Below are positions 4,501 to 20,186 of a stretch of DNA of 49,262 nt, in pieces. The position numbers and the translations under genes were made by a program. Every line of letters begins with the position of its first letter. Positions within the stretch are counted from its first letter, which is position 1. Below the pieces are notes generated by a model. It did no database searches. It was not told the DNA's origin and was given only the letters and a program-made list of their open reading frames with translations. This DNA is from an uncultured Gemmatimonadota bacterium (GTDB lineage: Bacteria; GCA-2686955), in assembly GCA_964490075.1 (NCBI GenBank), contig CAZBBK010000040.1, positions 1-49,262 of the forward strand, written 5' to 3'.

Positions 4501-6778
4501 CAACGGCGATGGCGACGCGACCTTGCCGGCGCCCGGCAACTGGTGGCGCATCAATTTCACCAACAGCGAGGGATCACGCCTCGTCTACGCCGACATCCGC
4601 TACGGGGGCTACTATAATCACTACTCCAATCGCCGCGGCATGGTCTTTCTGAACTACAGCTCCTTTGTCGAGCCGGCGCCGGTGATCCAGAACTGTGCAA
4701 TCACCGACTCGTACGACTACGGTGTCTACTGCGAAGGGGGTTCGAGCACGGAGCCGACGATCGACTCCTGCACCTTTGCCGACGTGCCGGCCTTTGCCGT
4801 CTACAACACATCGACCGCCATCCTTCCCGGTGTGTCACAGTGCAGCTTCGACGTGCCCTACGGGGTCTACGTGCGCTCGGCCAGCAGCGTGACCGACAAC
4901 ACTTTCGCCGACGCCACGAGCTACGCGATCTACATCAACGGCAGTGGTGCCGGAGTGACCGGCAACACCACGACCGGCAGCACCGGATGGGGCCTCTACA
5001 CCGAGAGCGGATCGTTGGGGACGCTGTCCGGAAACAGCTTCTCGGGCACCGGCACCCACCCCGTGCGGATGCATCCCAACGACCTGCGCTGGCTGACCAG
5101 CAACACCTTCGACTGGCCGCTGGCCTGGACCTACCAGATCATGAGCGGTACCCTCACCGAGAACGCGACCTGGCGGGCACTGGAAGTGCCTTACGAGGTG
5201 GTCGGATCGTTCACCATCGACGGCGGCGACACCCTGACCATCGACGCCGCCACCATCGTCAAGATGAACCGCTGCTCGGTGACCATCAACGGGGGGTTCT
5301 ACTGCGAAGGCGTGGCGGGTGCGCCGGTGGTGTTCACTTCGATCAAAGACGACACCTGGGGCGGCGACAGCAACGGTGACGGAGCCGGGACCACGCCGGT
5401 GGCCGGCGACTGGTATCACATCCGCTACACCTCGTCGGCGTCGGGCGGGCAGCTCGACCACGTGGTGCTGCCCTACGGCGGCTACGGCAACGGCTATACA
5501 CTGCGCGTCGAGAGCATCAGCCCGGCGATCAACGACCTGACGATCGAGAATGGCTCGACGCACGGGCTCTACCTGAGCGGGGGCTGCGCCTCGCAGATCG
5601 CGCGCAGCACATTCAGCGGAGCCACCTACGGAGTGTTTTCCGAGCAAGGCTCCAACCCCACATTCACCGACTGCAACATCACCGGCAACTCGAGCTGGGG
5701 TATCTACAACGCCGACTCGGGCACCACCGTGAGCGCCGAGAACTGCTGGTGGGGCAGCGACACCGGGCCTTATCACGCCGGCACCAATCCGAGCGGAACG
5801 GGCGACGCGGTGACCGACTACGTCGATTTCACACCCTGGCGTGATATCGAGTACACAGCGAACGCGATCGTCGTCACCTTGACGCCTTATCAGTCGATCG
5901 TGCCGCGCGGCGGCACCGGGGACTTCAAGGAGACGCTGACCAACACCAGCGATACGTCGGAGAGCTTCACGCACCGCTTTCGAGTTCTGGACGCAGGGGG
6001 CGATCCCTACCATTCCTTTGCGCCCACTTCGGTGACTCTGGCCGCGGGAGAGACTCAAACGACGCTCTATTCGATGAAGGTCCCGGTGGGCACGCCGCTG
6101 GGCATCTATACCGTGGAGGCCAGGGCCTACGAGGGCCCGACCGTGCTCGATGTCGACAGCTTCCAGGTCGAAGTGATCGATGTTGCGGGTGCCGTGCCGG
6201 AAGGCGAGCCGGAGGGCGAGCCGGTGCTGGCCGCCGGCGGAGCGGGGGCGGCGGGCCGTGGTGGAGCGGCCGCGGGGGCGGCGCGGGCGCGCACGAGCGC
6301 GGCGGCCGAGGCCGAAGGGGCGGGGTGGATCGTGGAGATCGTGGAGCGGACGAGCTCGATCCGGGGAGCGATCGCCGTCGCGGAGGGCGAGCGACTGTTG
6401 GAGGCGGAGGCCGGCTTCGAAGCGGCAGGCGAGGCGAACGAGGGCGATCAGTCGCTCGATTCTCCGGCGGCGGATCAGGGCCGACCGCAGCTCCCGGCGC
6501 CTCGCTTCGGGCTCGGCCCGGCCGCGCCCAACCCCTTCAATCCTTCGACCCTGCTGCGTTTCGCGGTCGAGGAGGCGGGGCCGCTGTCGCTGCGCATCTA
6601 CGACAGCGCTGGTCGCCTGGTGCGTACCCTGGCCGAGGGGGAGCGCCAGGCCGGCTACTACTCGATCCGCTGGAAAGGAGACAACGAGCAGGGCCGCGGC
6701 GTACCGAGCGGGGTCTACAGCGCGGTGCTGATCGCCGGCAAGGAACGCGCTCTGCGGCGCCTGGTGCTAGTGAAGTAG
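1511..6778 (+). CDS. Large secreted right-handed beta-helix repeat protein: four 296-aa repeats, an Ig-like domain and a C-terminal FlgD-Ig domain
   Basis: GGAGG RBS before ATG 1511; signal peptide ending ...AAAPANA; repeated 'IxFTSYxDDTxGGDTNGDG...GDWWRI'; 'AENCWWG..GPYH..NPSG.GD'; C-terminus 'PNPFNPST...IYD..GRLVRTL..G....G.Y...W.G....G..VPSGVY'. Confidence 0.85.
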   Translation: MHPSAWARIPRPLLVVLLAACAAAPANALTSHGGTISADETWTGAGEVHLITSDVTVASGVTLTLEPGAIVKFQARYHLSVNGTLLSEGTALDPITFTSYKDDTVGGDTNGDADATTPAGGDWWRINFTNSPGSELSYTNIRYGGYQSHYTNRRGMVFLKYTTFVDPAPLLQNCEITDSYDYGVYCEGGSASEPTIDSCTFADVPTYAVYNSSTSVLPFVTQCSFDVPYGVYVRSSSAVTNNTFNDATGHAIYVYTTGATISGNTTSGSTNYAVLCDNGSGPLADLSGNTFAGTGPFPLRLHAEDLRRIDANGFTGWIGARGYECLGGSMTTTATWPDFSALPLVLTYTTATVESGATLTLRPGSIIKFNAQTHFSVNGTLLSEGDAQDHIVFTSYEDDTAGGDTNGDGAATSPAPGDWWRINLSNSAGSRLIYTDVRYGGYQTHYSNRRGMIYLNYGSFVEPAPLLQSCAISDSYDYGVYCEGASSTEPTIDSCSFDDVPVYAVYNSSTTVLPTVSQCSFDVPYGVYVRSPSAVTDNSFNDATSHAIYVYTTGATITGNTTTGATEYAVLCDNGSGPMSDLSGNTFAGTGPFPVRLHTEDVRRIDDNSFAGWSAARGYECFGGSMTTTATWPDFSTLPLVLTYTTATVESGATLTLQPGSIIKFNAQTHFTANGTLLSEGTGADHIVFTSYEDDTAGGDTNGDGDATLPAAGDWWRINLTNSSGSRLIYTDVRYGGYQNHYSNRRGMIYLYYGSFVEPAPLLQNCAITDSYDYGVYCEGSSSTEPTIDSCSFDEVPVYAVYNSSTTVLPTVSQCSFDVPYGVYVRSPSAVTDNSFNDATSHAIYVHTTGATITGNTTTGATSYAVLCDNGAGPMSDLSGNTFAGTGPFPVRLHAEDVRRIDDNSFAGWSGARGYECFGGSMTTSATWPDFSTLPLVMTYTTTTIDAAATLALTPGSIIKFNAQTHFDVNGTLLSEGTDADHIVFTSYKDDAAGGDTNGDGDATLPAPGNWWRINFTNSEGSRLVYADIRYGGYYNHYSNRRGMVFLNYSSFVEPAPVIQNCAITDSYDYGVYCEGGSSTEPTIDSCTFADVPAFAVYNTSTAILPGVSQCSFDVPYGVYVRSASSVTDNTFADATSYAIYINGSGAGVTGNTTTGSTGWGLYTESGSLGTLSGNSFSGTGTHPVRMHPNDLRWLTSNTFDWPLAWTYQIMSGTLTENATWRALEVPYEVVGSFTIDGGDTLTIDAATIVKMNRCSVTINGGFYCEGVAGAPVVFTSIKDDTWGGDSNGDGAGTTPVAGDWYHIRYTSSASGGQLDHVVLPYGGYGNGYTLRVESISPAINDLTIENGSTHGLYLSGGCASQIARSTFSGATYGVFSEQGSNPTFTDCNITGNSSWGIYNADSGTTVSAENCWWGSDTGPYHAGTNPSGTGDAVTDYVDFTPWRDIEYTANAIVVTLTPYQSIVPRGGTGDFKETLTNTSDTSESFTHRFRVLDAGGDPYHSFAPTSVTLAAGETQTTLYSMKVPVGTPLGIYTVEARAYEGPTVLDVDSFQVEVIDVAGAVPEGEPEGEPVLAAGGAGAAGRGGAAAGAARARTSAAAEAEGAGWIVEIVERTSSIRGAIAVAEGERLLEAEAGFEAAGEANEGDQSLDSPAADQGRPQLPAPRFGLGPAAPNPFNPSTLLRFAVEEAGPLSLRIYDSAGRLVRTLAEGERQAGYYSIRWKGDNEQGRGVPSGVYSAVLIAGKERALRRLVLVK
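1712..5250 (+). repeat. Intragenic tandem repeat, 888-bp (296-aa) unit, 4 copies with a degenerate fifth starting near 5250
   Basis: The Gly codon of G(A/S)I(V/I)KF falls at 1712, 2600, 3488 and 4376, exactly 888 bp apart. Copies 2 and 3 are nearly identical at DNA level. Confidence 0.92.
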
Positions 6779-6784
6779 AAGAAT

Positions 6785-9490
6785 GTGTCGATTGCCCCTC
6801 GTCAGAGCTCGATCGGGCGCCCTCGTCTGTGCCGCAACCCGCGGCGGCCAGGGCGGAGTCTGGTGATGCTGGCGGCTTTGAGCAGCGCACCGCTCTCCGG
6901 CGCCTTCGGCGGCGTTCCGAGCTTCGCTGGGCTCGGGGACCCTTGGCATCCGCACTCCTGGTTGGGCTATGAGACCGAGTGGAGCTCCGCCGCGTCCGAC
7001 CGGCACGCGATCTTCCAGGAGCACGGCGAATGGAGCGGTGGGCCCGGTCATGACCGTTTCTATCTCGGCTACTGGATCCCCTCGCGCGCGGGTCTCGGCA
7101 TCGGTCGCCAGCGGCCGCTCACCGAGCTGGTCCTCTTCGACACCGCGCTGCCCTTCGAAGGGGTGCAGGCCGCGGCCGGCGGCGAGAGCTGGTGGCTGGC
7201 CGGCATCGCCGGCAGGACGCAGGAGTCGGGCCTCTACGGGGCGGGCGGAGCGTTCGCCGATCCTCTGAGCGCGGCGGCCGTCGACTGGGTCTTGCCGGGA
7301 GAGCTGGAGCTGCGGGGTGCGGTCGCCGACTGGGGCGATGCTTCCACCGGTGTACATGATCCGGGCGCTCTGGTGTCGCTCAGGGCCGCGCCCGGTGGCT
7401 CCTTCGAGGCCGGCGGCGCCCTCGGCGTGTTCTGGGGCGAGGACGGAGGGGAGGCGGACCGGCGGGCCTTCGAGTGGGATTTTCTGACGCAGGGCTCTGA
7501 GCACTTCCTATCGTTGCGACACGAGCGTCGCGAAGCCGGCTATTCGCGCCTGGGGGCCCCGGTGGCGCGCGCCGGTTGGGATCGGGCGAGCCTCGGCGGT
7601 CGCTTGTCGATCGGGCGGCGCTGGGACTGGATCCACCAGTCGTGGATGCAGCGCGGCCGCTATCCGCGGGCGCAGCTGGTGTCGGGCGCGGAGCAATGGC
7701 GCTCCTTCCTGAGAGAGGAGCTGAGCTGGCGCGGCGCGGCGTCCGAACTGCAGGCGGAGCTGCTCTACCGCGACACATCCGTGCCCTCTACCCGGATCGG
7801 AGCCCGGGGACGAGCACGCGACGCTGTTGTTCCCGAGCTGGAGCTCGGTGTCTGGGGGCGGCTCGATGCCGGGCGCCCATGGCGCTGGAGCGAGCTCTTG
7901 ATCGGCACCGGTGACAGCTTCGATGGGGACCGGCGTCACTGGAGCGCCAGAGGGCGGCTGCTGGGCGGCGCGCTGGGCGGTGGCGAGCCGACACTGCTCT
8001 CGACCTCGCTCCATCTCGACCGGCAAAGCGACGACGACCGTGATTTCTGGGCCGCCGACTGGCAGCTCTCCCTCGCGCCGGGGGCGGATCCGGGCGAGCG
8101 GATGCGGAGCACCCTGAGAGTGCGCGGCTCCGGCGACCTCGGCGCACGCACCGATTTGCACTGCTCGGCCGCGCTGCGCGCCGATCAGGACGGGATCGTT
8201 TCGGCCAGCCTCGATGGAGGCGCTGCGATCACTCTGGGCCCGAGCAATCGGATCGCGGGCAGCTACACGTTGATCGTGACCAGGATGCGGCCCGCGCTGT
8301 GGGGCCGAACATCCCAGCTCGGTCTGCTCTGGCAGCAGTCTTTCGGCGGCCCGAAGGAGCGGATCTGGCGCGAGAAGCTGTTGCCGAGTCTCCGGGTCCG
8401 GGTCAGCGCCCGGCCACGGCGCGGGCCGGGAGAGGCCGAGCCGATGGCGAACGTCACGGTGCGTTTGAACGACGCGATCGGCGCCAGAACCGACGCCACC
8501 GGCTGGGCGCGTTTCGCGCGCCTCGATCCCGGCCCCTACCATGTTGCGCTCGACTCCTTCGAGCTGGGTCCCAACTACGGTCCGAGCACCCACCTGAGCC
8601 GCGATATCGTGCTGCCCAGCGCCACCGAGAAGACCCTGCGCTTCGGCCTGCGGGCGAGCTGCTCGGTGCTGGCGGTGGTGTGGAACGATATCGACGGCGA
8701 GGGGGAGCTGCCTTTTGGCTACGTTCCGATCCCAGAGGTTCCCTTGATCGTCGACGGGATCGAGACCTTCGAGACCGACTCCACCGGCTCGTTGCTGCTC
8801 CCGAACCGCTACCCCGGTGCCCATCGAATCGCGCTCGATCTGGAGCGCCTCGATCCGCGCCTGCATGCCACGACCGAGACCGAGCAAGGGCTCGAGCTGG
8901 TTCCCGGTTCGGAGCTGGTAGCGCGCTTCGGCCTGCGCGCCTTCGGGAGGCTCGGGGGCCGCCTGCTGCTGCAGGTCGGGCCGGGAGAGGCGCCCTCGCC
9001 CGGGCCGGCCGGCGTCGACATCTATGCAAACGGGCGGTGGATCGCCGAGACCGACGCCGGCGGTCGCTTCGAGACCGAGGCTCCGGTCGGCCGGCTGGCG
9101 CTGGAGGCCCGCCTGCGCGCGCTGCCCCGAGCGCCGATCGCTCCAGTGTCGGCGATCACCATGGTGCGGGTCGGCCTCGACGAGAGGGTGGAAGCAGAGC
9201 TGGTGCTGCCGCGCCACTGCCGTCTGCGGGTGCGGATCACCGACGAGCAGGGCGCCGGCTCCGCAGCCTCCGGGATTCCGGTGGAAATCGTCGGCGGTGC
9301 GTTTCAGTATGCGTCGCACCAGGGCGAGGTACTCTTCGACCGGCTGGAGCCCGGTCCGATCACGGTCCAGATGCTGCCGGACTACCTGCCCCAAACCCAC
9401 CAGCTGGTGTCGCCACCTCGCACCGAGCTGGTCCTCGAGCTCGGCGAGGAGATGGAGCTGGAGCTGCTGATTCGGAGGCGCGGGCGATGA
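6785..9490 (+). CDS. Putative outer-membrane beta-barrel (usher-like) protein with four C-terminal prealbumin/SdrB-like domains
   Basis: N-terminal hydrophobic segment, then ~500 aa of Gly/Trp-rich alternating strands. From ~8380 there are four repeats such as 'ANVTVRLND..ARTDATG.ARF..LDPGPY.VALD' and 'VVWNDIDGEG...IPEVPLIVDG...TDSTG...PGAHRIALD'. Start uncertain (GTG 6785 or ATG 6866). Confidence 0.6.
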   Translation: MSIAPRQSSIGRPRLCRNPRRPGRSLVMLAALSSAPLSGAFGGVPSFAGLGDPWHPHSWLGYETEWSSAASDRHAIFQEHGEWSGGPGHDRFYLGYWIPSRAGLGIGRQRPLTELVLFDTALPFEGVQAAAGGESWWLAGIAGRTQESGLYGAGGAFADPLSAAAVDWVLPGELELRGAVADWGDASTGVHDPGALVSLRAAPGGSFEAGGALGVFWGEDGGEADRRAFEWDFLTQGSEHFLSLRHERREAGYSRLGAPVARAGWDRASLGGRLSIGRRWDWIHQSWMQRGRYPRAQLVSGAEQWRSFLREELSWRGAASELQAELLYRDTSVPSTRIGARGRARDAVVPELELGVWGRLDAGRPWRWSELLIGTGDSFDGDRRHWSARGRLLGGALGGGEPTLLSTSLHLDRQSDDDRDFWAADWQLSLAPGADPGERMRSTLRVRGSGDLGARTDLHCSAALRADQDGIVSASLDGGAAITLGPSNRIAGSYTLIVTRMRPALWGRTSQLGLLWQQSFGGPKERIWREKLLPSLRVRVSARPRRGPGEAEPMANVTVRLNDAIGARTDATGWARFARLDPGPYHVALDSFELGPNYGPSTHLSRDIVLPSATEKTLRFGLRASCSVLAVVWNDIDGEGELPFGYVPIPEVPLIVDGIETFETDSTGSLLLPNRYPGAHRIALDLERLDPRLHATTETEQGLELVPGSELVARFGLRAFGRLGGRLLLQVGPGEAPSPGPAGVDIYANGRWIAETDAGGRFETEAPVGRLALEARLRALPRAPIAPVSAITMVRVGLDERVEAELVLPRHCRLRVRITDEQGAGSAASGIPVEIVGGAFQYASHQGEVLFDRLEPGPITVQMLPDYLPQTHQLVSPPRTELVLELGEEMELELLIRRRGR

Positions 9491-10119
9491 AGCAACGCAT
9501 CGGCGGAGTCCGATCGGTGCTGCTCTCGGCGGGCGTGACCTGCGCCCTGACGATCGCTTCGGCGGGCGCACAGGCGATCGAGCGCCCGCGGCGAGGCGGC
9601 GTCGAGCAGCGCCGCACCTACGTCGAGGTCAGCGGAGCGCTGCGCTTCCCCGCGACCACGCTGCGCGGCCGGGAGATCGTGGTCGCGGCGGTGGAGGCGC
9701 CGACGGTTCGTCTCGGAACCGACCGCGACGCCGGGTTCCACGTCACGATCCAGGCGGGCGACTTCGAGAACGAGCGTGGGGCGACGATCCCGGCGCTCGG
9801 GCTGAGGTTTCGCGCCGAGCGCGGCGTGATCGTCGCGGCCGAGCTTCCCGAAGTGTCGGCGACGCTCTTTGAAGTTGGACGGCGAGTCCTGCGCGATGGC
9901 CGGGGGGAGCCCGATGGGGGCGGCGCGGAGCTGCCGCGCGAGACTCATTCCGAGGGCAGTCTGCGGCATCCGCTCACAGTGTTGACCGGCCCGGCCTTCG
10001 CGCCGGGCGAGTTCGTCTATCGACCCGATCCCGATTCGTTTTGGCTCACGATTCCCGCCAACGTGCACGCGGGCGATTTCACCGCAACCCTCACGGTCAG
10101 TATCGTCGTTGGACCATGA
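9487..10119 (+). CDS. Secreted WxL-like protein, paralog of 13791-14363 (putative minor subunit)
   Basis: ATGA overlap with the upstream stop; signal peptide ...SAGAQA. Aligns with the WxL gene: LRFPATTLRGREIV vs LAFASQTLTGNDIV; GFHVTIQAGDF vs GWTLTLAAADY; LTIPANVHAGDFTATLTVSI vs LTIPAVTKAGSYTSDLTATV. Confidence 0.75.
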   Translation: MKQRIGGVRSVLLSAGVTCALTIASAGAQAIERPRRGGVEQRRTYVEVSGALRFPATTLRGREIVVAAVEAPTVRLGTDRDAGFHVTIQAGDFENERGATIPALGLRFRAERGVIVAAELPEVSATLFEVGRRVLRDGRGEPDGGGAELPRETHSEGSLRHPLTVLTGPAFAPGEFVYRPDPDSFWLTIPANVHAGDFTATLTVSIVVGP

Positions 10120-10141
10120 GGACGCGAACGGAGACCTCCAG

Positions 10142-13100
10142 ATGTTCCTCGCGAGAGTGATCGATATCGGCCGGACAGAGATCGATGCCACGCTGGGCGC
10201 GCGCCTTGGATGGGCGGTGCTGAGTCTGCTGGGTGGCGCTTCGGTGCATGCGGCGCTGCTTTCGGTTCCTTCGCAGTACTCCACGATCCAGGAAGCGATC
10301 GACGCCGCGGCGCCGGGCGACGAGATCGTCGTCTCGCAGGGGACCTACGGCGAGACGATCGATTTCTCCGGCAAGGGAATCACGGTACGCAGCAGCGATC
10401 CGAGCAGCCCCTCGATCGTCTCCACCACCGTGATCGACGCCGGCGCGGCGGGCAGCGCGGTGACCTTCGATGGCGGCGAAACGGCGTCGTCGGTGCTGCA
10501 GGGGATGAAGCTGACCGGCGGCAGCGGCACCGTCTACGCCACCGGCCCGGGCAGCGGCGAGAGTGTGGCGGGCGGAGGGGTATTCTGCCGCGACGCGTCG
10601 CCCACCATCCTCGACTGCATGATCCAGAGCAACGATGTCACGGCCGCGCCGAGCACCGCCGGCGGAGGGGTGTTCGTGCAGGGCGGAGCGCCGACTCTGG
10701 AGCGCTGCACGATCAGCGGCAACGCGACCGGTGGAGACGGTGGCGGCATCTTCACGGAAGGCGGCGCGTCGCTCACCCTGGTGGACTGTAGCTTCAGCGC
10801 CAACACGGCCGGGCGCAACGGCGGCGCCCTCGCCCTGGCCGACACCTGCGATCTCACCCAGTCGGGCGGCGAGATGAGCTCGAACAGTGCGCTGCGATCC
10901 GGCGGGGCGCTCTTCGGCACCCGCGAGTCCGGCATCCTGCTCTCCGATTGTGTCGTCACCAGCAACAGCGCGACGGGCGACGGCGGTGCGGTGGCGCTGG
11001 AGGACGCGGCGGCATCGAGCTTCACCGGCTGCAGCATCGACGACAACGGCGCGGGCGACTCTGGCGGCGCCTTCGCGGCCCTGCGCTCGGCCACGACGAT
11101 CCGCTCGTGCACCATGAGCGGCAACGATGCCCTCAACTTCGGCGGGGCGATCTTCGGCTTCGCGCAGTCCGCGTCGATCATCGACGAATGCAGCATCGGC
11201 ACCAGCTCGGCCTGGCAGGGCGGCGGGATCTGGCTGAACGGTCCGGCGGTCTTCACCAACACCGATGTGAGCAACAACGATGCCAGCTGGGGCGCGGGGC
11301 TCTACCTGGAGAACTGCTCGCCGAGCTTCAGCGGCTGCACCATCGAGCGCAACGATGCCCAGGCCTCCGGCGGCGGCCTGCTCTGCTTCGACGAGGCCTC
11401 GCCCAGCTTCGACGCCTGCACCATCTCGCTCAACAGCGCGCAGGGCGCATCCGGCGGTCTGGCCTGCTGGGCCGGATCGAGCCCCGAGCTCGTGAACTGC
11501 GTCATCGACCGCAACCAGGCCGACGGCACCGCCGGCGGAATGCGCTGCGTCGACGAGTCGTCTCCCTATCTCATGAACTGCACGATCGCCGGCAACAGTG
11601 CGGGCGCGACCGGGGGACCGATGAGCTGCTCAGGCGACTCTCGGCCGGTCATCGTCAACACGATCATCTGGGGCAACTCGCCGGCAGCGATCTACTCCCC
11701 ATACTCGACCCCGAAGATCACCTACAGCGACGTGCAGGGGGGCTGGTACGACGAAGGCAATCTGAACTCCGATCCGCTCTTTCTGAACGAGGCCAGCGGC
11801 GACTACCGCTTGATGCAGGATTCCCCCTGCATCGACTCCGGCACACCCTTCCGGGCGCCCGACGTCGACAACGAGGGACACACCCGGCCCACCGACGATG
11901 GCTACGAGATGGGGTCCGATGAGTTCATCGGCATCATCTGCGATCTCGGCATCGACATCCTCGACTTCACGCCGACACTGGCGGTGGGAGAGGTGCTGGA
12001 GATCGACGCGGAGATCTCGAATCCCTGTCCCTTCTCACTCGACTTCAACTCGGTGAACCTGCGGGCCGAGGGACCCGCGAGCGCGGAGTTCCGCCTGATC
12101 AACAACGTCGAGGTGACGATGCGTCCGGGAGAGACGCGTTCGCGGATGCTGCGCAAGATGGTGCCTTTCGATGCTCCGGCCGGATCGTACTCGATGACGC
12201 TCGAAGTGCTGCGCGGGCAGAGTGTGGTCGCCAGCGAGGTGTTCGCGATCGCGGTGACGCTTTCGGGCGATATTCTGGAGGTGCCGGCGACTTATCCCAC
12301 CATCCAGGCGGCAGTCAACGCGGCTGCCGACGGCGACGAGGTGGTCGTCTCGCCCGGGACCTACGGCGAGTGGAACATCCGTCTTCTGGGCAAGGCGATC
12401 ACGGTGCGCGGCACCGATCCTTCCGACTCCGCGACCGTGGCCGCCACGATCGTCGACGGCGGCGGCAACGACCGGGTCTTCTTCATCGCCGACGGGGAGC
12501 ATCACGATACCGTGGTCTCGGGTCTCACCATCCGCGGCGGCTACGCCCGCGAAGGTGGCGGCATCGCCTGCTGGGAGACGGCGCCGACCATCTCGAACTG
12601 CGTCATCACCGGATGCCAGGCCCATGCGCCCGGGCTGGGAGGCGGCGCGATCTGGGGCAAGGACTCCGACCTGGTGCTCGAGGGCTGCACGCTGACCGGC
12701 AACAGCGCCGTCAGCTACGGGGGGGCGGTCTCGCTGGCGACCGCGTCGTCGGCGCTCGGCGGCATCCTGGCCCTCTCCGCGACGCCCGAGCTGCTCGACT
12801 GCCGCATCGAAGGCAACAGTGCGGCCAACGGCGCCGGGGTCTTCTTCTCCAACGTGCGGCCGATGATCGCCGGCTGTCTGGTCCTGGGCAACACGGCCAC
12901 CGGCTACGGCGGCGGGATCTTCGGCACCAACAGCGCTTCCGCCACCATCGACAGCTGCACCGTCGGCAACAACAGTGCCGCCTACGGAGGCGGCCTGAGC
13001 CTGCAACGGACCGCGACCACGATCCAGGGAGGCGCCATTCGCGACAACCAGGCGACTGCGGCCATCTTCGGCGGGGGTGGCGCCTTCATCGACCGCTCCG

Positions 13101-13648
13101 CGGTGACCCTGAGCGGCACGAACCTGGACGCCAATACATGCGCGGCGGACGGCGGTGCGTTGCACCTGGTCGGCGGCAGCACAACCATCCGCAACAGCCT
13201 GCTGACCAACTCGACCTCCAGCGGCCAGGGCGGCGCGATCTACACCACCGCGAACCCGGTCACGATTCAGAACTGCACCCTGGCGGGCAACAGCGCCGCG
13301 GAGGGCGACGCCATCTACGCGCAGTCGGGCGGTGCCACGACCGGTGTGAACAACATTGTCACCAATGGAGGCAGCGACGAGCTGACGCCGACCCATCGCG
13401 TCACGATGAGCTACTCGATCGTCGAGGGCGGCTGGAGCGGCGCGGGCAACCTCGACGTAGATCCACTGTACCGTGATCTTGGAGCGAAGGACTACCACCT
13501 GCAGGCGACCGCCTGCGGCGATGCGGCCGACTCCCCGGCGATCGACGCCGGAGATCCCGCGACCACCGACACCGCCCTCGATTGCGAGACCGGCCTGGGC
13601 ACCAGCGCCGCCGATATGGGCGCCTACGGAGGACCGGGAAACGGCTGA
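10142..13648 (+). CDS. Secreted beta-helix protein (beta-helix / Ig-like / beta-helix), adhesin-like paralog 1
   Basis: GGAG then ATG 10142; 'VPSQYSTIQEAIDAA.PGD.I.V..GTY'; many 'GGG/GGA...C.I.GN.A' repeats; 'DPLF...DY.L...SPCID.G' and 'DMGAYGG' caps. Confidence 0.85.
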   Translation: MFLARVIDIGRTEIDATLGARLGWAVLSLLGGASVHAALLSVPSQYSTIQEAIDAAAPGDEIVVSQGTYGETIDFSGKGITVRSSDPSSPSIVSTTVIDAGAAGSAVTFDGGETASSVLQGMKLTGGSGTVYATGPGSGESVAGGGVFCRDASPTILDCMIQSNDVTAAPSTAGGGVFVQGGAPTLERCTISGNATGGDGGGIFTEGGASLTLVDCSFSANTAGRNGGALALADTCDLTQSGGEMSSNSALRSGGALFGTRESGILLSDCVVTSNSATGDGGAVALEDAAASSFTGCSIDDNGAGDSGGAFAALRSATTIRSCTMSGNDALNFGGAIFGFAQSASIIDECSIGTSSAWQGGGIWLNGPAVFTNTDVSNNDASWGAGLYLENCSPSFSGCTIERNDAQASGGGLLCFDEASPSFDACTISLNSAQGASGGLACWAGSSPELVNCVIDRNQADGTAGGMRCVDESSPYLMNCTIAGNSAGATGGPMSCSGDSRPVIVNTIIWGNSPAAIYSPYSTPKITYSDVQGGWYDEGNLNSDPLFLNEASGDYRLMQDSPCIDSGTPFRAPDVDNEGHTRPTDDGYEMGSDEFIGIICDLGIDILDFTPTLAVGEVLEIDAEISNPCPFSLDFNSVNLRAEGPASAEFRLINNVEVTMRPGETRSRMLRKMVPFDAPAGSYSMTLEVLRGQSVVASEVFAIAVTLSGDILEVPATYPTIQAAVNAAADGDEVVVSPGTYGEWNIRLLGKAITVRGTDPSDSATVAATIVDGGGNDRVFFIADGEHHDTVVSGLTIRGGYAREGGGIACWETAPTISNCVITGCQAHAPGLGGGAIWGKDSDLVLEGCTLTGNSAVSYGGAVSLATASSALGGILALSATPELLDCRIEGNSAANGAGVFFSNVRPMIAGCLVLGNTATGYGGGIFGTNSASATIDSCTVGNNSAAYGGGLSLQRTATTIQGGAIRDNQATAAIFGGGGAFIDRSAVTLSGTNLDANTCAADGGALHLVGGSTTIRNSLLTNSTSSGQGGAIYTTANPVTIQNCTLAGNSAAEGDAIYAQSGGATTGVNNIVTNGGSDELTPTHRVTMSYSIVEGGWSGAGNLDVDPLYRDLGAKDYHLQATACGDAADSPAIDAGDPATTDTALDCETGLGTSAADMGAYGGPGNG

Positions 13649-13657
13649 GTTCCTGGC

Positions 13658-13687
13658 GGCGCCACGAACTCGTTTTTTGGCGCCTTT
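13658..13687 (+). terminator. Possible intrinsic terminator after paralog 1
   Basis: Inverted repeat GGCGCCA...TGGCGCC followed by TTT, starting 10 nt after the stop codon. Confidence 0.4.
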
Positions 13688-13703
13688 GGACCGCGCCCAG
13701 GGC

Positions 13704-13732
13704 TTGACACCCGGGGGGGCGGATGTAAGACT
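13704..13732 (+). promoter_or_regulatory. Sigma70-type promoter for the WxL gene
   Basis: Perfect TTGACA (13704-13709), 17-bp spacer, extended -10 TG-t-AAGACT; GGAGGA RBS downstream at 13780. Confidence 0.6.
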
Positions 13733-13790
13733 CAGAAGACACACAACGGTTCTGGGGGGGCGCTTTGGGGACCCTCATTGGAGGAACGAA

Positions 13791-14363
13791 ATGCGCAGGA
13801 TGAGCTTTCTGGCGGCGGCCGGGATGGTTGTCGCCGGCGGATCAGCGTTGGCCTTGACCGCCACCGACACCGGCAACGACGCGACCATCACGCTCAACGC
13901 CGGCACCGTGACGGTCAATGTCACGACCGACCTGGCCTTCGCAAGCCAGACGCTGACCGGTAACGACATCGTCTTGACGTCCGCCGCCAGCGTTCCGGAC
14001 ATCACGGTGAACGACTCTCGGGGAACCGGTCAAGGCTGGACGCTGACGCTGGCCGCGGCCGACTACACCGATGGGGGCACCGAGACCATCGATGCCGCGA
14101 ACTTCACCTATATCAACCCGAGCTCCGGCACGCTGGGCTCGGTGAACTGGCCGAGCGCCGATCCGGACATCGACAACCACGACACCGCCCAACCGCTGAG
14201 CTCGGCGGTCGGTCTGTTGACCGCGGGCACCGACGAGGGCATGGGGGACGGCACCTTCAGCCTCGACGTGGCGATGTTCGGTCTGACCATTCCCGCGGTG
14301 ACCAAGGCTGGCAGCTACACCTCGGATCTGACCGCGACGGTGACCTACGATCCCGTTCCCTAG
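13791..14363 (+). CDS. WxL-domain surface protein (putative major subunit)
   Basis: Strong RBS; signal peptide MRRMSFLAAAGMVVAGGSALA; WxL-family motifs 'V.DSRGTGQGWTL', 'LLTA....GMG', 'LTIPA...AGSY.S.LT.T'. Confidence 0.85.
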   Translation: MRRMSFLAAAGMVVAGGSALALTATDTGNDATITLNAGTVTVNVTTDLAFASQTLTGNDIVLTSAASVPDITVNDSRGTGQGWTLTLAAADYTDGGTETIDAANFTYINPSSGTLGSVNWPSADPDIDNHDTAQPLSSAVGLLTAGTDEGMGDGTFSLDVAMFGLTIPAVTKAGSYTSDLTATVTYDPVP

Positions 14364-14384
14364 CCGTTCTTTGCGCGTCAAGTT

Positions 14385-14432
14385 CGGGCAAGCCTCGTCT
14401 CGCGGGTCGCTCCGGGAGGTGAGGCTTGTTCG
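14385..14432 (+). terminator. Long stem-loop between the WxL and DUF916-like genes (mRNA stabiliser or attenuator)
   Basis: CGGGCAAGCCTC (14385-14396) pairs with GAGGCTTGTTCG (14421-14432), and the inner GTCTC.CGGG / TCCG.GAGGT extends the stem. No U-tract follows. Confidence 0.6.
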
Positions 14433-14457
14433 TGTCGGATGAAGATCGCGGAGGTTT

Positions 14458-15330
14458 GTGGTGCGTGGAGCGAAGTTCGCGGCGATTTTGTATTGCGTGT
14501 TGCTGGCGGCGGGGCTGACCGATGAGGCGCGCGCGGCGGGCAGCTTCTCGGTCGAGCTGATCGATCCCGCGGAGGAAGGCTACTACTTCCGCCACCGGCT
14601 CGATCCCGGTGGAAGCGTCACCCGCAGCATCGTAGTAGCCAATCCGACCGCCGAGACGATCGAGGTGGCTCTCTATCCGGCCGATGCCTACTGTACCGCG
14701 GCCGGAGGCCTGAACGGCGGTCTGCGCGGTACGGCGGTGGAGCGGGAAGGTCGGTGGCTGAATCCTGAGCGCCGATCGTTGACGCTGGCGGCGGAGGCCA
14801 GCGAGTCGGTCGCGATCGAGATGCGAGTCCCAGCCAATGCCGAGCCCGGTGACCACTTCGCCTTCGTCTTCGTGGAGCTGGGCGAGACCAGAGCCGAAGG
14901 GGCGAGCGATGGAGCCGCCGACACCTCATCCGTCGCCTTGCAGGTCGCGGTCACTCCGCGTTTCGGGGTTCTGTTCTGGGAAACGGTACCCGGTCCCGAG
15001 GTGCTGGAGATCGATGTCGCGAAGGTGGGCAAACGGATCGAAAAGGGAGCCTTGCTGCTCGATGTGGAGCTGCGCAACAGCGGCAGTCTCTTCGCCAAAC
15101 CGAAGCTCGACTGGGCGCTGCTGCATCCGGGCGGCCGCCGGGTGGCGGGGCAGCGCGAGTTGGGAGGTCAGATTCTCCTGCCCGGGACGAGCTACTTGCT
15201 GAGCTTGCCGATCACCACCGATCGCCCCCTGATTCGCGGTGACTACTCGCTGGAGACCACACTTCGCTACTACCGAACCGGAATGGAAGAGGTTGCCAAG
15301 GAGAAGCGCTTCCCGATTCTGCTGCCTTGA
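14458..15330 (+). CDS. DUF916-like (WxL-interacting) secreted protein with two Ig-like domains and no C-terminal TM anchor; chaperone-like
   Basis: GGAGG RBS; signal peptide ...DEARA; 'YYF...LDPG.S....IVVAN.T.....VALYPADA..T..GG', 'W....LTLAA......V...M.VPANAEPGDH', second domain 'ELRNSG...PG'. Confidence 0.8.
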   Translation: MVRGAKFAAILYCVLLAAGLTDEARAAGSFSVELIDPAEEGYYFRHRLDPGGSVTRSIVVANPTAETIEVALYPADAYCTAAGGLNGGLRGTAVEREGRWLNPERRSLTLAAEASESVAIEMRVPANAEPGDHFAFVFVELGETRAEGASDGAADTSSVALQVAVTPRFGVLFWETVPGPEVLEIDVAKVGKRIEKGALLLDVELRNSGSLFAKPKLDWALLHPGGRRVAGQRELGGQILLPGTSYLLSLPITTDRPLIRGDYSLETTLRYYRTGMEEVAKEKRFPILLP

Positions 15331-15427
15331 TGGCGTCCCCGGCGGCCGGAAGCGCGCCGTGCCGGACGGGAGCGCTCGGCCCGGACGCCGCTCAATCTCC
15401 GGCCACCGAAGTGCCGATCAACAGAGC

Positions 15428-15976
15428 ATGTGCGCTTCTTTCGCCCGAATCGTCCGCCGGCAACCGATCCGCCACGCCGCATCGAGACTGCTGCTCTCGC
15501 TGGCCCTGGGCGCCGGCGCGGCCACGGCGGAGCAGGTCTCGGCCCTGGCCAGGGCATCGATCGTTCTGACCGCCGGAAGAGTGCTGATCGGGACCGAGTT
15601 CGTGGAATATCCCGCGCCCGGGGCGGGCGGCGTGGTGCTCGAGGGGGAGTGGTTCCCGCGCGCGCGCACCGAGATCACCGCGCGCGGCGGCGGCGCCAGC
15701 GCGGGACGGCTGGGGATCAGGGCGCAGGCCCTCGATTCGGAGCGCCGCGGCGTGGCGATCCTGGCGGCTGGCTTCGATGGTGGCGGTGGATTGGCGCTGG
15801 CACCGGTGGAGGGCGCGCGTCGCGGCAGCGTCCGTCTCCTGGCGCGTGGGCTGCACTGGCTGGAAGACGTCGAGCAGAAGTCGATCGAGGCCAGGCGCCC
15901 CGTCGCGAGCGATGCCGAGACGAGCATGGCCGGAGTGGTCGCGACAGTCGTTCCAAGTCTGGCTGATCCTCGCTAG
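15428..15976 (+). CDS. Small secreted protein, possible divergent subunit
   Basis: Signal-like segment RLLLSLALGAGAATA; mature N-terminus 'ASIVLTAGRVLI' resembles 'ATITLNAGTVTV' of the WxL protein. Start uncertain. Confidence 0.5.
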   Translation: MCASFARIVRRQPIRHAASRLLLSLALGAGAATAEQVSALARASIVLTAGRVLIGTEFVEYPAPGAGGVVLEGEWFPRARTEITARGGGASAGRLGIRAQALDSERRGVAILAAGFDGGGGLALAPVEGARRGSVRLLARGLHWLEDVEQKSIEARRPVASDAETSMAGVVATVVPSLADPR

Positions 15977-16057
15977 CAACGCCCGCACAGCGCGTCGGGT
16001 CCCGCGTGGCCCGATCGGCGAAGTGGCGATGAGTTGGGGGAACGGCGCGACCCAGGC

Positions 16058-16086
16058 GTGACACGTTCCTCCCTCCGGGGTACAAT
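16058..16086 (+). promoter_or_regulatory. Sigma70-type promoter for paralog 2
   Basis: GTGACA - 17 bp - TACAAT, 55 nt upstream of ATG 16142. Confidence 0.6.
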
Positions 16087-16141
16087 TCTGATGCTCGTGC
16101 GAGAACCGCCCGCGCCATGCGTCAAGAACCCAGGGGGTATC

Positions 16142-19100: not shown

Positions 19101-20173
19101 GGGACCTGGGATCCGACGACTTCACGATCGACTTCTGGATGCGCCCGGCTTCATCCGGCGACACGCGGGGTCTCTTCGCGCTGGGCAAGAACTCGAATCC
19201 GGACTGGCGGCAGTTCAACATCGAGCAGAGAACGGACGGACGCATCCGCTGGAACATCCAGCAGAGCTCCTCTTTCGTCTTCGACATCACCGCCCCATCC
19301 GCGCCCCCGCTCGATCAGTGGTCGCACATCGCGGCGGTTCGCGATGGGGACGACTTCAGGCTCTTTGTCAACGGTACGCAGATGGCCTCGGCCAGCAGAT
19401 CGGTCACTCTCGATGACTACGATGACGCCCTGGTCATCGGGCGCCGGCCGGAGCTCGGGCAGTACAACGGCCATATCGACGAGCTACGCGTTTCCACAGG
19501 TATCGCCCGGTGGACCGGCGACTTCACGCCCCCCAGCGCCCCTCACGGCGACGATATCTACACCAAGCTGCTTTTCCCCATGGATGGTGATGAGTCCGAC
19601 TCCGGCCACGCGGTGAGCTTGGTTGGCGACGGAGACGTCAAGCTCGCCGCCGACATCGGCAAGTGGAACGGCAGTTTTGCCTTCGCCGGCAGTCCCGGAC
19701 ATCTCTCGATTCCCGATCACGACGACTGGTACTTCGACTCCGACGATTTCACCATCGACCTGTGGGTGCGCTTCGACACCGTTGCGAACTCGGGATTCGT
19801 CTCGCAATGGGACGATGGTACCAATCTCTGGCGCTTCTACTTCTATAGTTCGCAGCTGCGCTTCGATAGCTACGCTTTCGCCCATGCCGGCGGCTCATTC
19901 GGCATCTACCGAAGCTGGGTCCCGGCCACGGACACCTGGTACCATCTCGCCCTCACGCGCTCGGGAGGCGACTGGCGCCTCTTCGTCGACGGCAGCCAGC
20001 TCGGCGCAACCGAGACCGATAGCTTCACTCTGCCCGATCTCGGTAGCCCCGCCAACGTCGGCTGGGACCCTGACGCCGGCCTCTACTTGGACGGGCAGAT
20101 CGACGAGCTGCGGATCGCGGCCGGCGTTGCTCACTGGGCATCGAACTTCACGCCGCCCGTGGCTCCCTACTAG
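16142..20173 (+). CDS. Secreted beta-helix / Ig-like / beta-helix protein with two C-terminal LamG (concanavalin A-like) domains, paralog 2
   Basis: Signal peptide ...CATVATA|ATIHVP; same middle modules as 10142. Two copies of 'LL..DG...KF/WxG...DFTID.W...W.H.A..R.G....LFV.G...G.IDELR...G.A.W...FTPP.AP'. Confidence 0.85.
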   Translation: MRHIARSAAAVVLACATVATAATIHVPADQPTIQDGINAAVNGDEVVVAPGSYHEASVSFGGRAITVRGSDPNDWAVVEATVVDADAAGPVFNFGNGEDSTSVLSGLTVTDGIGIWGIGGGIYVSNCSPKIERCLITGNSASARGGGLGYYDAPNPIAVECRIEGNTTNGQGGGVSSYYGGTFRDCLFIDNTASSGGAAYSYTDGLTFINCVLANNTATGSGGAIHACWADGVVVTNCTIYGNSATGSGGTLHVSCPSTVAFKNSILWNALQGGQNEIDSGGYPGVSATYCDIQGGWGGAGNIASDPSLLDPAAGDYHLAIGSPCIDAGTASGAPAVDYEGDARPFDGLFDIGADEFTGPPCLLDLSVISFTPTLAVGEVLEIEAEVSNSCDISQDFNSVKVSAQGPASAEFYLINNVTVSLRPGETRARSLRKMIPFNAPPGDYDLTLEVLLDDFVLASEAFTITVTASGDIITVPGDFARIQDAIMVAADGDQVVVSPGTYAEWDIRLLGKAITVRGTDPADSATVAGTVVDAGGNGRGFYVADGEGHDTVISGLTIANGYAREGGGIGCWESAPTISRCVIRDCDAHAAGMGGGAIWGKDSDLVLDDCTLSGNSAVSYGGAISLSTASSAMGGILSLPATPEITDCRIEGNSAGSGAGLFFSNVRPAIQGCVLLANSATVQGGGIFGVTSAAATIEDCTFEGNVAGFGGGISLQRCQATIEGGSWLENEALEAFFGGGGIFADRTTLTLSGASFTLNSSGNDGGGLYLNAGSATIERTLIAESFAGARGGGICVASNPLTLTNCTVVDNDALEGAGIYAYSGGTTTGLNNIVTGAATALHPDYRIAMSYSLVEGGWSGEGNLDVDPLYRDPGSLDFHLQSIACGDAADSPAIDAGDPATADSLLGCDDGLGSGAADMGAYGGGAAAGASQTVLLLHGDGDQSASQHRLGAHGAPRLDAGVAKFGAGSCYFGGADFFTVSDHPDWDLGSDDFTIDFWMRPASSGDTRGLFALGKNSNPDWRQFNIEQRTDGRIRWNIQQSSSFVFDITAPSAPPLDQWSHIAAVRDGDDFRLFVNGTQMASASRSVTLDDYDDALVIGRRPELGQYNGHIDELRVSTGIARWTGDFTPPSAPHGDDIYTKLLFPMDGDESDSGHAVSLVGDGDVKLAADIGKWNGSFAFAGSPGHLSIPDHDDWYFDSDDFTIDLWVRFDTVANSGFVSQWDDGTNLWRFYFYSSQLRFDSYAFAHAGGSFGIYRSWVPATDTWYHLALTRSGGDWRLFVDGSQLGATETDSFTLPDLGSPANVGWDPDAGLYLDGQIDELRIAAGVAHWASNFTPPVAPY

Positions 20174-20186
20174 GAGCTCGTTGCGC

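Follow-up and report, generated by a model that had tools for sequence, protein, structure and literature searches.

A WxL pilin-like gene, a WxLIP-type helper gene and an outer-membrane barrel gene linked in a Gemmatimonadota bacterium

WxL pili of Bacillota and a related locus in a diderm

In Enterococcus, WxL clusters encode pili that form by donor-strand exchange, and their DUF916/DUF3324 chaperone is anchored in the membrane (preprint, October 2026; bioRxiv 10.64898/2026.10.17.759780). The WxL domain was originally described as a peptidoglycan-binding module, according to PMC10599100 and the preprint, and the static WxL model has been revised for Enterococcus by cryo-EM and biochemistry (bioRxiv 10.64898/2026.10.17.759780). 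The same preprint reports a C-terminal membrane helix in 96.7% of WxL chaperones and finds that these and the chaperones of chaperone-usher pili are disjoint sequence families. WxL chaperone-pilin operons were found only in Bacillota in its screen of RefSeq reference proteomes, and Actinomycetota form a small satellite among the WxL chaperones. The closest known WxL systems are the E. faecalis Elr pilus and the Bacillota WxL-WxLIP (Csc) clusters (preprint; Protein Sci 2023, PMC10599100).

The DNA analysed, hereafter the window, comprises positions 1-49,262 of the forward strand of contig CAZBBK010000040.1, from assembly GCA_964490075.1 of an uncultured Gemmatimonadota bacterium (GTDB GCA-2686955). 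Six genes, B to G, lie almost contiguously on the plus strand at 6785-15976, in agreement with the co-oriented cluster of the original prediction. The locus is packed with genes for secreted beta-helix proteins, and the C-terminal domain of the adjacent protein A is of the FlgD_ig / T9SS type. The host genome contains five matches to BamA-type Omp85 proteins (best 3.8e-56) and LpxC (9e-94), which adjoins the best Omp85 match on contig C7. The host is thus a diderm, not a monoderm, and its outer membrane and LPS gene set it apart from the Bacillota that carry the described WxL clusters. As originally noted, and unlike in those clusters, there is no LPxTG anchor in the window: a regular-expression scan of its ORFs of at least 120 residues returned 0 LPxTG-type tails. 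The window also holds no sortase; a single sortase-family match lies on another contig of the host genome.

The linkage recurs in an independent assembly from a sister genus (G001), where orthologues of B, C, E, F and G are present on three short contigs arranged as B-C-beta-helix, beta-helix-WxL-WxL and F-G. The genes thus recur beyond the window, and an analogous cassette is found on Deinococcus plasmids (below).

The WxL subunits, the helper and their modelled complex

Gene E (13791..14363, +) encodes a small WxL protein of 190 residues with a signal peptide. It scores 43.3 bits against PF13731 (cut-off 25) and is the only PF13731 match in the host genome, so that its earlier designation as a canonical WxL protein holds. 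An alternative start at 13473 was rejected; the ATG at 13791 is preceded by GGAGG. After cleavage behind A21, the mature N-terminus presents N8, A10, I12 and L14, against the pilin donor-strand consensus [S/T]8-x-[G/A]10-x-[V/I]12-x-F14 (bioRxiv 10.64898/2026.10.17.759780), and the pattern A-x-[IV]-x-L is found in all five E-type sequences of our WxL alignment. E orthologues are 66-67% identical. A small WxL subunit with a donor-strand-type N-terminal strand is shared with the Elr system, and we propose that E is the major pilin.

The product of gene C (9487..10119, +), 210 residues long and secreted, is a divergent WxL-like protein that matches E over about 200 residues (BLASTP, E 1e-6) and matches nothing in Pfam. 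The presence of more than one WxL paralogue in the cluster is shared with Elr/WxL loci. The N-terminal donor-strand motif is absent from C in the WxL alignment. Its ATG overlaps the TGA of B (ATGA), which bears out the predicted translational coupling of a WxL-like gene to the barrel gene, an arrangement that differs from the Bacillota clusters; the C orthologue of the sister genus (39% identical) likewise overlaps the B orthologue. We propose that C is a tip or adaptor subunit, or a partner of the barrel.

Gene D (10109..13648, +) encodes a secreted double beta-helix protein of 1179 residues (Pfam Beta_helix, 1.7e-48; NCBIfam choice_anch_Q, 32 bits, cut-off 25). In the sister genus, a beta-helix gene follows the C orthologue, and the WxL genes are likewise preceded by a beta-helix gene. 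Large beta-helix proteins also accompany Elr/WxL clusters, but those of the present locus have no detectable WxL domain, and an HMM of the WxL alignment found none in D, which is possibly a payload or an adhesin. The last gene, G (15428..15976, +), lies in an ORF spanning 15239-15976; the start at 15428, which would yield a signal peptide and a product of about 182 residues, is the likely one. This small secreted protein is conserved downstream of F (BLASTP E 5e-5 with the corresponding ORF of the sister genus), has no match in Pfam or NCBIfam and shows no significant similarity to the WxL alignment (hhalign probability 0.3%). It is possibly a further short subunit.

Gene F (14458..15330, +) encodes a two-domain protein of 290 residues with a signal peptide, which the original prediction had called DUF916-like. 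Pfam gives PF06030 under its cut-off (E 0.0022) and does not detect PF11797, in which F departs from its Bacillota counterparts; the best PDB sequence match is EfmWxLIP1 (E 0.09). Structural and profile searches nevertheless confirm F as a WxLIP (DUF916-type) homologue. A Foldseek search of 350,542 chains, with a low-confidence AF2 model (pLDDT 50.8) as query, returned the E. faecium WxLIP chains 9i25_C, 9i1y_A and 9i1y_B as the top three (E 8e-10 to 3e-9), ahead of chaperone-usher chaperones (E 1e-5 to 1e-6). A tblastn search against plasmids matched 24 records (best E 2e-8, coverage 97%), with DUF916 annotated in 13 of the 20 matches listed, and an HMM built from the Deinococcus homologues recovered F as its sole match among 35,712 ORFs of the host genome (E 1.3e-14). 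A C-terminal hydrophobic segment was found in none of the five diderm homologues (window, sister genus and three Deinococcus; best 19-residue hydropathy at most 1.03), whereas both monoderm homologues have such a segment followed by a basic tail (Cohnella 2.47, Streptomyces 1.82). F thus lacks a C-terminal membrane helix and is a soluble protein, in keeping with the role of periplasmic chaperone that we propose for it.

The original prediction had called for modelling of a WxL-DUF916 complex, and the result suggests that E and F form a donor-strand-complemented pair. Three runs gave ipSAE values of 0.87, 0.88 and 0.88 against 0.16 for the best of three controls, although the predictor may have reproduced the already solved structure of a WxLIP-WxL complex (9i25). 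Of 157 solved complexes, 116 attain the ipSAE mark, compared with 2 of 215 mismatched pairs. In the model, the partner has a pLDDT of 84 and at least 90% of the contacts are common to the runs. The most confident pairs match F163-170 to E178-185 with both strands pointing the same way, so that a hairpin strand of F lies parallel to the subunit's C-terminal strand, as in the parallel ElrE-ElrD pairing of the Elr system (bioRxiv 10.64898/2026.10.17.759780). Residues 22-37 of E lie outside the interface, which leaves its N-terminal strand free. E is thus modelled with a chaperone interface.

The barrel protein and the Deinococcus cassettes

Gene B (6785..9490, +) encodes a secreted protein of 901 residues, which begins with a Sec signal peptide when the GTG at 6785 is taken as the start. 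Its AF2 model (family alignment of 20 rows, mean pLDDT 82.3) comprises 27 antiparallel strands by DSSP, over residues 31-493 of the 874-residue form, followed by one short helix and four beta-sandwich domains. B is, by this model, an outer-membrane barrel in fold, as originally predicted; with a count of 27 strands, the C-terminal domains could face either side of the membrane. Against SdrD-B/CnaB folds these domains align with Z 12.1 and 11.4 (rmsd 1.9), and B scores 31.2 bits against Pfam CarboxypepD_reg, slightly below the cut-off of 32.3. The B family includes about 18 more full-length clusters, and the sister-genus orthologue is 40% identical. The barrel was not found in three of the five genomes of the host phylum, two of those three being only 84% complete.

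Usher pores rank first for B in all three structure searches. VIA-align gave FimD (9fy9_D, Z 17.0; pore 3ohn_A, Z 16.6, rmsd 5.1, 342 aligned residues), the PapC pore 2vqi (Z 15.5) and an LptD model (15.2). A Foldseek-independent search of 48,161 chains placed the PapC and FimD pores on top (Z 15.3 and 15.2), followed by Tom40 (14.5). LptD, Tom40/VDAC and TonB-dependent receptors trail the ushers by no more than about 1-2 Z units, a gap that the tool rates as tied or nearly so. Like chaperone-usher pili (Fim, Pap, Caf, CFA/I and Csu, classical and archaic), the locus combines secreted subunits that carry an extended N-terminus, a helper of two Ig domains that would be soluble in the periplasm, and a large barrel of the outer membrane with beta-sandwich domains at its C-terminal end. 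It differs in that the subunits have the WxL fold, the barrel has about 27 strands instead of 24, and four C-terminal domains of prealbumin/CnaB type take the place of two. The model shows neither a plug-sized insertion nor an N-terminal chaperone-binding domain, PF00577 (Usher) has no match in B or in the rest of the host genome, the PapD_N signal (PF00345) was not found, and ushers are absent from the nine PDB sequence matches that the B-family profile gave. LptD-LptE offers another parallel: LptD is a very large barrel (26 strands) that ranks after the ushers for B, and C could sit in or on B as LptE does in LptD. However, sequence searches give no LptD signal, the signal peptide of C is of the ordinary and not the lipoprotein kind, and the neighbours are surface-protein genes, not LPS transport genes. 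We propose that B acts as an outer-membrane conduit, a fibre anchor, or both. The earlier assignment of B as an export usher agrees with the top structural matches, but their Z lead is narrow, and plug, N-terminal domain and sequence similarity to ushers are missing.

Related cassettes were inspected on three Deinococcus plasmids (NZ_CP026517.1, NZ_CP034185.1 and NZ_CP140100.1). Each carries four genes, largely annotated as hypothetical proteins, in which a soluble F-like gene comes together with a small, overlapping one and with a large one for 1013-1090 residues. The F-like proteins match F (hhalign probability 97.7%, E 1.4e-12), and the overlapping small protein is secreted. The tail of the large protein is homologous to B (probability 99.0%, E 8.5e-18) from the barrel end into the SdrD_B/CarboxypepD_reg repeats, the barrel parts lying outside that alignment; unlike B, it has additional Ig-like domains at its N-terminus. 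The cassettes also differ in yielding no Pfam-positive WxL gene and in having small proteins of insignificant WxL similarity (hhalign E 0.004-0.007, probability 6-8%). No other secretion genes are annotated beside them.

Assembly model and alternatives

We lean, with modest confidence, towards reading the locus as a WxL (Elr-type) donor-strand pilus system in a form for two membranes. Sec would export E, C and probably G. In the periplasm, soluble F would cap each WxL subunit by donor-strand complementation, its hairpin strand (residues ~155-170) inserting next to the subunit's C-terminal strand. E would then polymerise as the N-terminal strand of each subunit is donated to the next, and the fibre would cross the outer membrane through B or be held there, with the four prealbumin-like domains of B taking the role of the usher periplasmic domains. 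C, which is coupled to B and has no donor strand, may be the first (distal) subunit or a partner of the barrel.

A different reading, which we consider unlikely but well worth weighing, retains E and F as a true WxL/WxLIP pair and makes B an outer-membrane anchor or platform, not a translocation pore. Export would follow another route, and the Ig-like domains of B (periplasmic or surface), together with C, would hold a short WxL complex in place, perhaps one carrying beta-helix proteins. This agrees with the lack of plug, N-terminal domain and usher sequence signal, with the almost level Z-scores of non-usher barrels, with the coupling to B of a subunit that has no donor strand, and with the many secreted beta-helix proteins; the C-terminal domain of A hints at another export route. 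Yet a barrel of about 26-28 strands is much bigger than an anchor requires, the window shows no additional gene for an outer-membrane channel, and in Deinococcus, too, a soluble chaperone-like gene is paired with a large barrel gene, with no other secretion gene annotated alongside. We regard as improbable that the WxL/WxLIP-like proteins follow the older Csc/WxL platform model and stay in a static complex that does not polymerise. Such a complex would attach to peptidoglycan or polysaccharide, either in the periplasm or on the cell surface, and B would be an unrelated outer-membrane protein that merely lies in the same operon. The first description of WxL (PMC10599100 and bioRxiv 10.64898/2026.10.17.759780) and the insignificant WxL similarity of G and the Deinococcus small proteins fit such a complex, but the static model has been revised for Enterococcus, E retains the donor-strand pattern with its N-terminal strand free in the E-F model, and the ATGA coupling and conserved synteny speak against chance co-location. 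That a Gram-positive WxL fragment was misplaced in a diderm bin is hardly credible. The genome is a draft of 136 contigs and the RefSeq screen of the preprint found such operons in Bacillota only, but contamination is 0.53%, the orthologues stand in an independent sister-genus assembly, and E shares its 49-kb contig, of uniform GC (64-71%), with the barrel gene and with housekeeping genes for riboflavin synthesis, exonuclease VII and a DEAD-box helicase.

In Enterococcus, experiments have meanwhile demonstrated donor-strand WxL pili with a DUF916 chaperone (bioRxiv 10.64898/2026.10.17.759780), an idea of the original prediction. Its one-to-one mapping onto pilin, chaperone and usher fits the parts list, though not strictly: the subunits are of two or more types, perhaps three (C, E and G), and there is a beta-helix protein as well. 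For a WxL pilus exported through an outer membrane, the WxL/DUF916 pair in a diderm, the helper without an anchor and the linked barrel all stand, and the barrel may or may not be the conduit. The suggested evolutionary link between WxL and chaperone-usher systems would be one reading of the present data, which fit common descent and convergence alike. As the preprint confines the WxL system to Bacillota, the locus would be its diderm variant, of which we found none in the published literature. A pilin and a helper so far reported only from Gram-positive bacteria are thus present in a two-membrane bacterium, and a soluble helper together with a large outer-membrane pore protein suggests a pilus export route not described before.

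Gene layout and host

The window, whose GC content is 64-71%, has a run of secreted-protein genes in one orientation from position 1412 to about 22000. The six co-oriented genes of the original prediction, B to G, are all real. The GTG start of B, the barrel protein (6785-9490, + strand), is at 6785, 6 nt past the stop of A, a giant beta-helix protein encoded upstream. From this start, B has a basic N-region and a hydrophobic core that resemble a Sec signal peptide. The ATG start of C, a divergent WxL-like protein (9487-10119, +), overlaps the TGA of B, and the end of C overlaps by 11 nt with D (10109-13648, +), a beta-helix protein (Pfam Beta_helix, 1.7e-48). These are followed by E, a small WxL protein that starts at 13791 (+) and is preceded by GGAGG, by F, a soluble DUF916/WxLIP-like protein (14458-15330, +), and by G, a small secreted protein whose most likely start is at 15428 (+). 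Neither C nor G has a Pfam match. A promoter and terminator scan gave counts no higher than those obtained in shuffled sequence.

The cassette is flanked by further beta-helix proteins. A (1412-6778, +) is a secreted protein of 1788 aa, built from a beta-helix module of about 300 aa that occurs four times in nearly identical copies. Its final domain is FlgD_ig (44.3 bits), with a resemblance to the T9SS type A sorting domain (TIGR04183) that scores 20.3 bits, under the cut-off of 23. Other beta-helix proteins, with choice-of-anchor Q domains and in one case two LamG domains, are encoded at 16034-20173, 19623-22073 and 22515-24044. D, the 16034 protein and the 19623 ORF have long near-identical stretches in common, and the 19623 ORF reads as the 16034 protein minus its second beta-helix, which suggests recent duplication and recombination. 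Among 35,712 ORFs, no WxL-like domain fused to a beta-helix protein had an E-value of 0.01 or lower.

The host genome (5.7 Mb in 136 contigs, 95% complete, 0.53% contaminated) belongs to a GTDB phylum with five species genomes only. It contains five Omp85-family matches, the best of which (3.8e-56, in a 760-aa frame) adjoins LpxC (9e-94). Its genome carrying both BamA/Omp85 and a gene for LPS synthesis, the host is thus a diderm and not a monoderm, in agreement with the fibre exported through an outer membrane that had been proposed. Mis-binning of the contig is unlikely, since ordinary housekeeping genes are found in the window at the same GC. The locus is similar to Elr-type WxL operons in its WxL protein and differs from them in that no LPxTG-type tail was found among the window ORFs of at least 120 aa. 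The LPxTG anchor and the sortase are optional in the operon definition given in a preprint on Enterococcus Elr/WxL pili (bioRxiv 10.64898/2026.10.17.759780). A single sortase-family match (PF04203, E 1.9e-16) is located on a contig of the host genome other than that of the WxL locus (G000:C53:16628-16981, locus L021).

The chaperone-like protein F and its predicted subunits

Several independent results place F in the DUF916 family. The match to PF06030 (WxLIP_PGBD/DUF916) is weak, with 18.5 bits and an E-value of 0.0022, and does not reach the gathering cut-off of 27.3. A tblastn search of 72,556 plasmids with F returned 24 records, and among the best 20, 13 carry a DUF916 annotation; the top match, from Cohnella, covers 97% of F at an E-value of 2e-8. 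The best phmmer match of F in the PDB is EfmWxLIP1, a weak one (E 0.09). The AlphaFold2 model of F, computed from a three-row alignment, is poor (pLDDT 50.8), and the TM-scores of 0.35-0.39 are therefore of little weight, so that the hit ranking alone was used. In this ranking, the top three among 350,542 chains in a Foldseek search with the low-confidence model are the Enterococcus faecium WxLIP chains 9i25_C, 9i1y_A and 9i1y_B, with E-values of 8e-10 to 3e-9 and alignments to WxLIP of 272-280 columns. The chaperones Caf1M, CfaA, EcpB and FimC of chaperone-usher systems are found lower in the list (E 1e-5 to 1e-6), and the PapD-like chaperone family PF00345 (PapD_N) was not detected in F at E up to 0.1. 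Neighbours of F in the ESM Atlas, which serve as leads only, form clusters in Deinococcota, Acidobacteriota and Bacteroidota, including one automatically named PapD chaperone; two of the neighbour clusters carry PF06030 or PF11797 on 11-14% of their members.

WxLIP proteins comprise DUF916, DUF3324 and a membrane helix. F is similar to them in homology and fold, including a second beta-sandwich domain modelled at residues 185-289 (pLDDT about 64-81), and differs in its PF06030 score under the cut-off, in that PF11797 (DUF3324) was not detected by Pfam at E up to 0.1, and in the C-terminus. The best 19-residue hydropathy within the last 70 residues is 1.03 for F, as compared with 2.47 and 1.82 for the homologues from Cohnella and Streptomyces. 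Both of these monoderm homologues have a terminal hydrophobic helix with a basic tail, whereas a C-terminal hydrophobic segment is absent in all five diderm homologues, namely F, its orthologue in the sister genus and three Deinococcus proteins. By its sequence, F thus lacks a membrane anchor. A membrane helix is present in 96.7% of the WxL chaperones surveyed in the preprint (bioRxiv 10.64898/2026.10.17.759780).

As predicted, Pfam recognizes E as a WxL protein (PF13731, 43.3 bits, E 5.4e-11) well above the gathering cut-off of 25 bits, and E is the sole PF13731 match in a scan of the whole host genome (42.4 bits). C aligns with E over its full length (BLASTP, 1e-6) and is a paralogue. E harbors the first Trp-x-Leu motif (G-W-T-L) and a Trp-free C-terminal motif (L-T-A-T-V-T-Y), and C has neither Trp. 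In an alignment of seven sequences, all five E-type proteins carry, directly past the signal peptide, A-x-[I/V]-x-L with a Gly turn behind it. Taking cleavage after A21, mature E has N8, A10, I12 and L14; the consensus given for the donor strand in WxL pilins of Enterococcus is [S/T]8-x-[G/A]10-x-[V/I]12-x-F14 (bioRxiv 10.64898/2026.10.17.759780). The two C-type proteins in the alignment have a charged, proline-containing N-terminus, and C consequently looks like a subunit that may accept a strand and would be unable to donate one. For G, we considered a WxL subunit as well, and hhalign against the WxL alignment gave no significant score.

WxL-like genes were also seen elsewhere. In another genome of the host phylum (G003), a 267-aa ORF at L013 60-863 (- strand) has a WxL-like C-terminal part with 31% identity to E (E 3.3e-9); it sits at a contig end in an assembly that is 84% complete, and both B and F were not found in that genus. 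A metagenome scan with the E family returned a fragment of 1.2 kb and a contig whose end holds three WxL genes in tandem, neither of them reaching a chaperone or barrel gene. On the latter (L016, 64% GC), the three Pfam-positive genes at 9277-11173 lie 3' of two response-regulator genes, and the contig stops about 340 nt past the third, which places any chaperone or barrel gene beyond view.

Modelling of mature F with mature E gave ipSAE values of 0.87, 0.88 and 0.88, against 0.16 for the best of three controls, with a partner pLDDT of 84 and at least 90% of the contacts common to the runs. The complex passes a test mark attained by 116 of 157 solved complexes and by 2 of 215 mismatched pairs. 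The contacts of highest confidence pair F163-170 in parallel with E178-185, and the N-terminal residues 22-37 of E remain outside the interface. The modelled geometry is that of donor-strand complementation, as the preprint gives for ElrE-ElrD (bioRxiv 10.64898/2026.10.17.759780). The WxL subunit thus presents, in the model, the chaperone interface that was expected of it, with a strand of an F hairpin donated to E; a WxLIP-WxL complex has already been solved (9i25), so the result shows likeness and may reflect that structure being known to the predictor.

The barrel protein B and its relation to ushers

In the original prediction B was the equivalent of an usher. Word-indexed searches for relatives of B returned B itself and the sister genus only, as did those with E and F for their own relatives. 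An exhaustive HMMER search with B returned 173 proteins at E up to 1e-3, including 18 at up to 1e-30. About 19 relatives are of B-like length (854-939 aa) and align mainly via the four C-terminal domains; their N-terminal halves are unassigned by Pfam save for weak porin and CopB hints. B itself scores marginally under the Pfam cut-off for CarboxypepD_reg, and its neighbours in the ESM Atlas are clusters rich in this domain (leads only). The AlphaFold2 model of B, built from a 20-row alignment of the B-length relatives, has a mean pLDDT of 82.3 and comprises 27 antiparallel strands (residues 31-493), one short helix and four beta-sandwich domains. B is accordingly modelled as a large outer-membrane barrel.

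Several kinds of barrel were weighed against this model. The FimD and PapC ushers are on top of the Foldseek list (E 5.7e-15) with low global TM-scores of 0.21-0.26. VIA-align gave Z-scores of 17.0 for FimD, 16.6 for the FimD pore (rmsd 5.1, 342 aligned residues) and 15.5 for the PapC pore, followed among the non-ushers by an LptD model (15.2), VDAC/Tom40 (about 14.6) and TonB-dependent receptors (about 14). A search of 48,161 chains that was independent of Foldseek again put the PapC and FimD pores on top (Z 15.3 and 15.2), then Tom40 (14.5). Overall, the barrel of B superposes on the FimD and PapC pores with Z-scores of 15.2-17.0 and an rmsd of 5.1-5.5 over 333-342 residues. The ushers are thus the nearest solved shapes, but their lead is within or near the tie range of the tool, a margin too small to make the match distinctive, and we take it as a lead only.

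On sequence, membership of B in the usher family was rejected. PF00577 (Usher) was not detected in B at E up to 0.1 nor anywhere in the host genome, with a positive E. coli control, and none of the nine PDB sequence matches of the B-family profile is an usher. Ushers consist of an N-terminal domain, a 24-strand barrel with an inserted plug and two C-terminal domains. The locus differs from the chaperone-usher pathway in having neither PF00577 nor PF00345, and the model of B in its 27 strands and four C-terminal domains. Its DSSP string contains no plug-sized insertion and no N-terminal domain, the barrel beginning directly past the signal peptide. What stands of the usher equivalence is therefore the large barrel for which usher pores rank first, but not a sequence signal, a plug or an N-terminal domain. 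A role of B as an usher is a plausible proposal.

Recurrence in other diderms and implications

The cassette recurs in the sister genus, where the fragmented assembly G001 carries its pieces on three short contigs. One encodes an orthologue of B (40% identity), an orthologue of C (39%) that overlaps it, and a beta-helix protein; another, a beta-helix gene and two WxL genes, one of which is 67% identical to E; and the third, an orthologue of F (51%) followed by a G-like ORF. A two-row B-family alignment used as locus query matched the G001 contig only. The searches did not find B or F in the three remaining genomes of the phylum; of these three, two are only 84% complete and one has a WxL-like ORF. 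Upstream of the B orthologue, where the window has A, G001 encodes a DUF4900 protein of 398 aa, along with two short ORFs devoid of Pfam matches (L008 4834-7261), so that the upstream neighbourhood of the cassette is not conserved.

The three Deinococcus plasmid matches of F (NZ_CP026517.1, NZ_CP034185.1 and NZ_CP140100.1) all lie in the same four-gene cassette (L023 7935-13508, L024 7859-13605, L025 7836-13521), mostly annotated as hypothetical proteins. It encodes a protein of ~292 aa, a soluble F-like protein, a smaller overlapping one (175-190 aa) and a large one (1013-1090 aa). The match of the F-like proteins with the F family extends across both domains (probability 97.7%, E 1.4e-12), and their HMM picks F alone in the host genome (E 1.3e-14). 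The large proteins carry Ig-like domains at the N-terminus, and their tail is homologous to B; they match the B family (probability 99.0%, E 8.5e-18) from the barrel-end motif through the first tail domains, the barrel parts not being covered, and tblastn of the barrel half of B gave no match in the plasmids. The small proteins were considered as WxL proteins, with no significant similarity, and their HMM has no match in the host genome. The Deinococcus cassette seems to be a system of the same kind. That a soluble WxLIP-like gene is paired with a B-tail gene in two diderm lineages so far apart is the best evidence here that B and F work together. The predicted recurrence of the triad is thus borne out for pieces of B, C, E, F and G in the sister genus and for the F-like and B-tail genes in the three plasmids, but not for a WxL subunit in Deinococcus.

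Donor-strand pili have long been considered a Gram-negative speciality. In Gram-positive WxL clusters the same donor-strand chemistry operates in the absence of an usher, with the chaperone anchored in the membrane (bioRxiv 10.64898/2026.10.17.759780). The preprint screened one RefSeq proteome per genus in 4,698 genera and reports operons in Bacillota only, by a rule that calls for PF06030 and PF11797 to exceed their thresholds in a single protein and for a WxL protein within 10 kb (bioRxiv 10.64898/2026.10.17.759780). By this rule E would count as the WxL protein, whereas F would not pass the two-domain filter, and the screen would therefore miss the locus. Judged by titles and the openings of abstracts, none of the papers returned by full-text searches treats a WxL system with an outer-membrane component.

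There is good support for reading the locus as a diderm WxL fibre system that has a periplasmic chaperone. Together with the Deinococcus cassettes, the locus shows that WxLIP-type chaperones occur in outer-membrane bacteria too, that their membrane anchor has there been lost or was never present, and that they accompany a very large usher-shaped barrel. The whole proposed mechanism, in which F would chaperone the subunits of a WxL fibre and B would be the conduit, is somewhat favoured. A wider proposal is considerably more doubtful: barrels of the B type with a prealbumin-domain tail might be working ushers for subunits of WxL fold and, with soluble WxLIP-like chaperones, might constitute a second chaperone-usher pathway that has no sequence relationship to the classical one and is spread over distant diderm phyla, from the host's candidate phylum of five species to Deinococcota. 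In that case the WxL pili of Gram-positive bacteria, which are membrane-anchored and sortase-finished, might represent the version of this ancient machine that serves a single membrane.

Screens at Pfam cut-offs overlook this branch of WxLIP-type systems. Since the Deinococcus strains are cultured, the question of the conduit is open to bench testing. If B is the conduit, the system would represent a new route for protein export and fibre assembly at the outer membrane, and would lend itself naturally to testing how assembly under the guidance of a chaperone is adapted to one membrane or to two.
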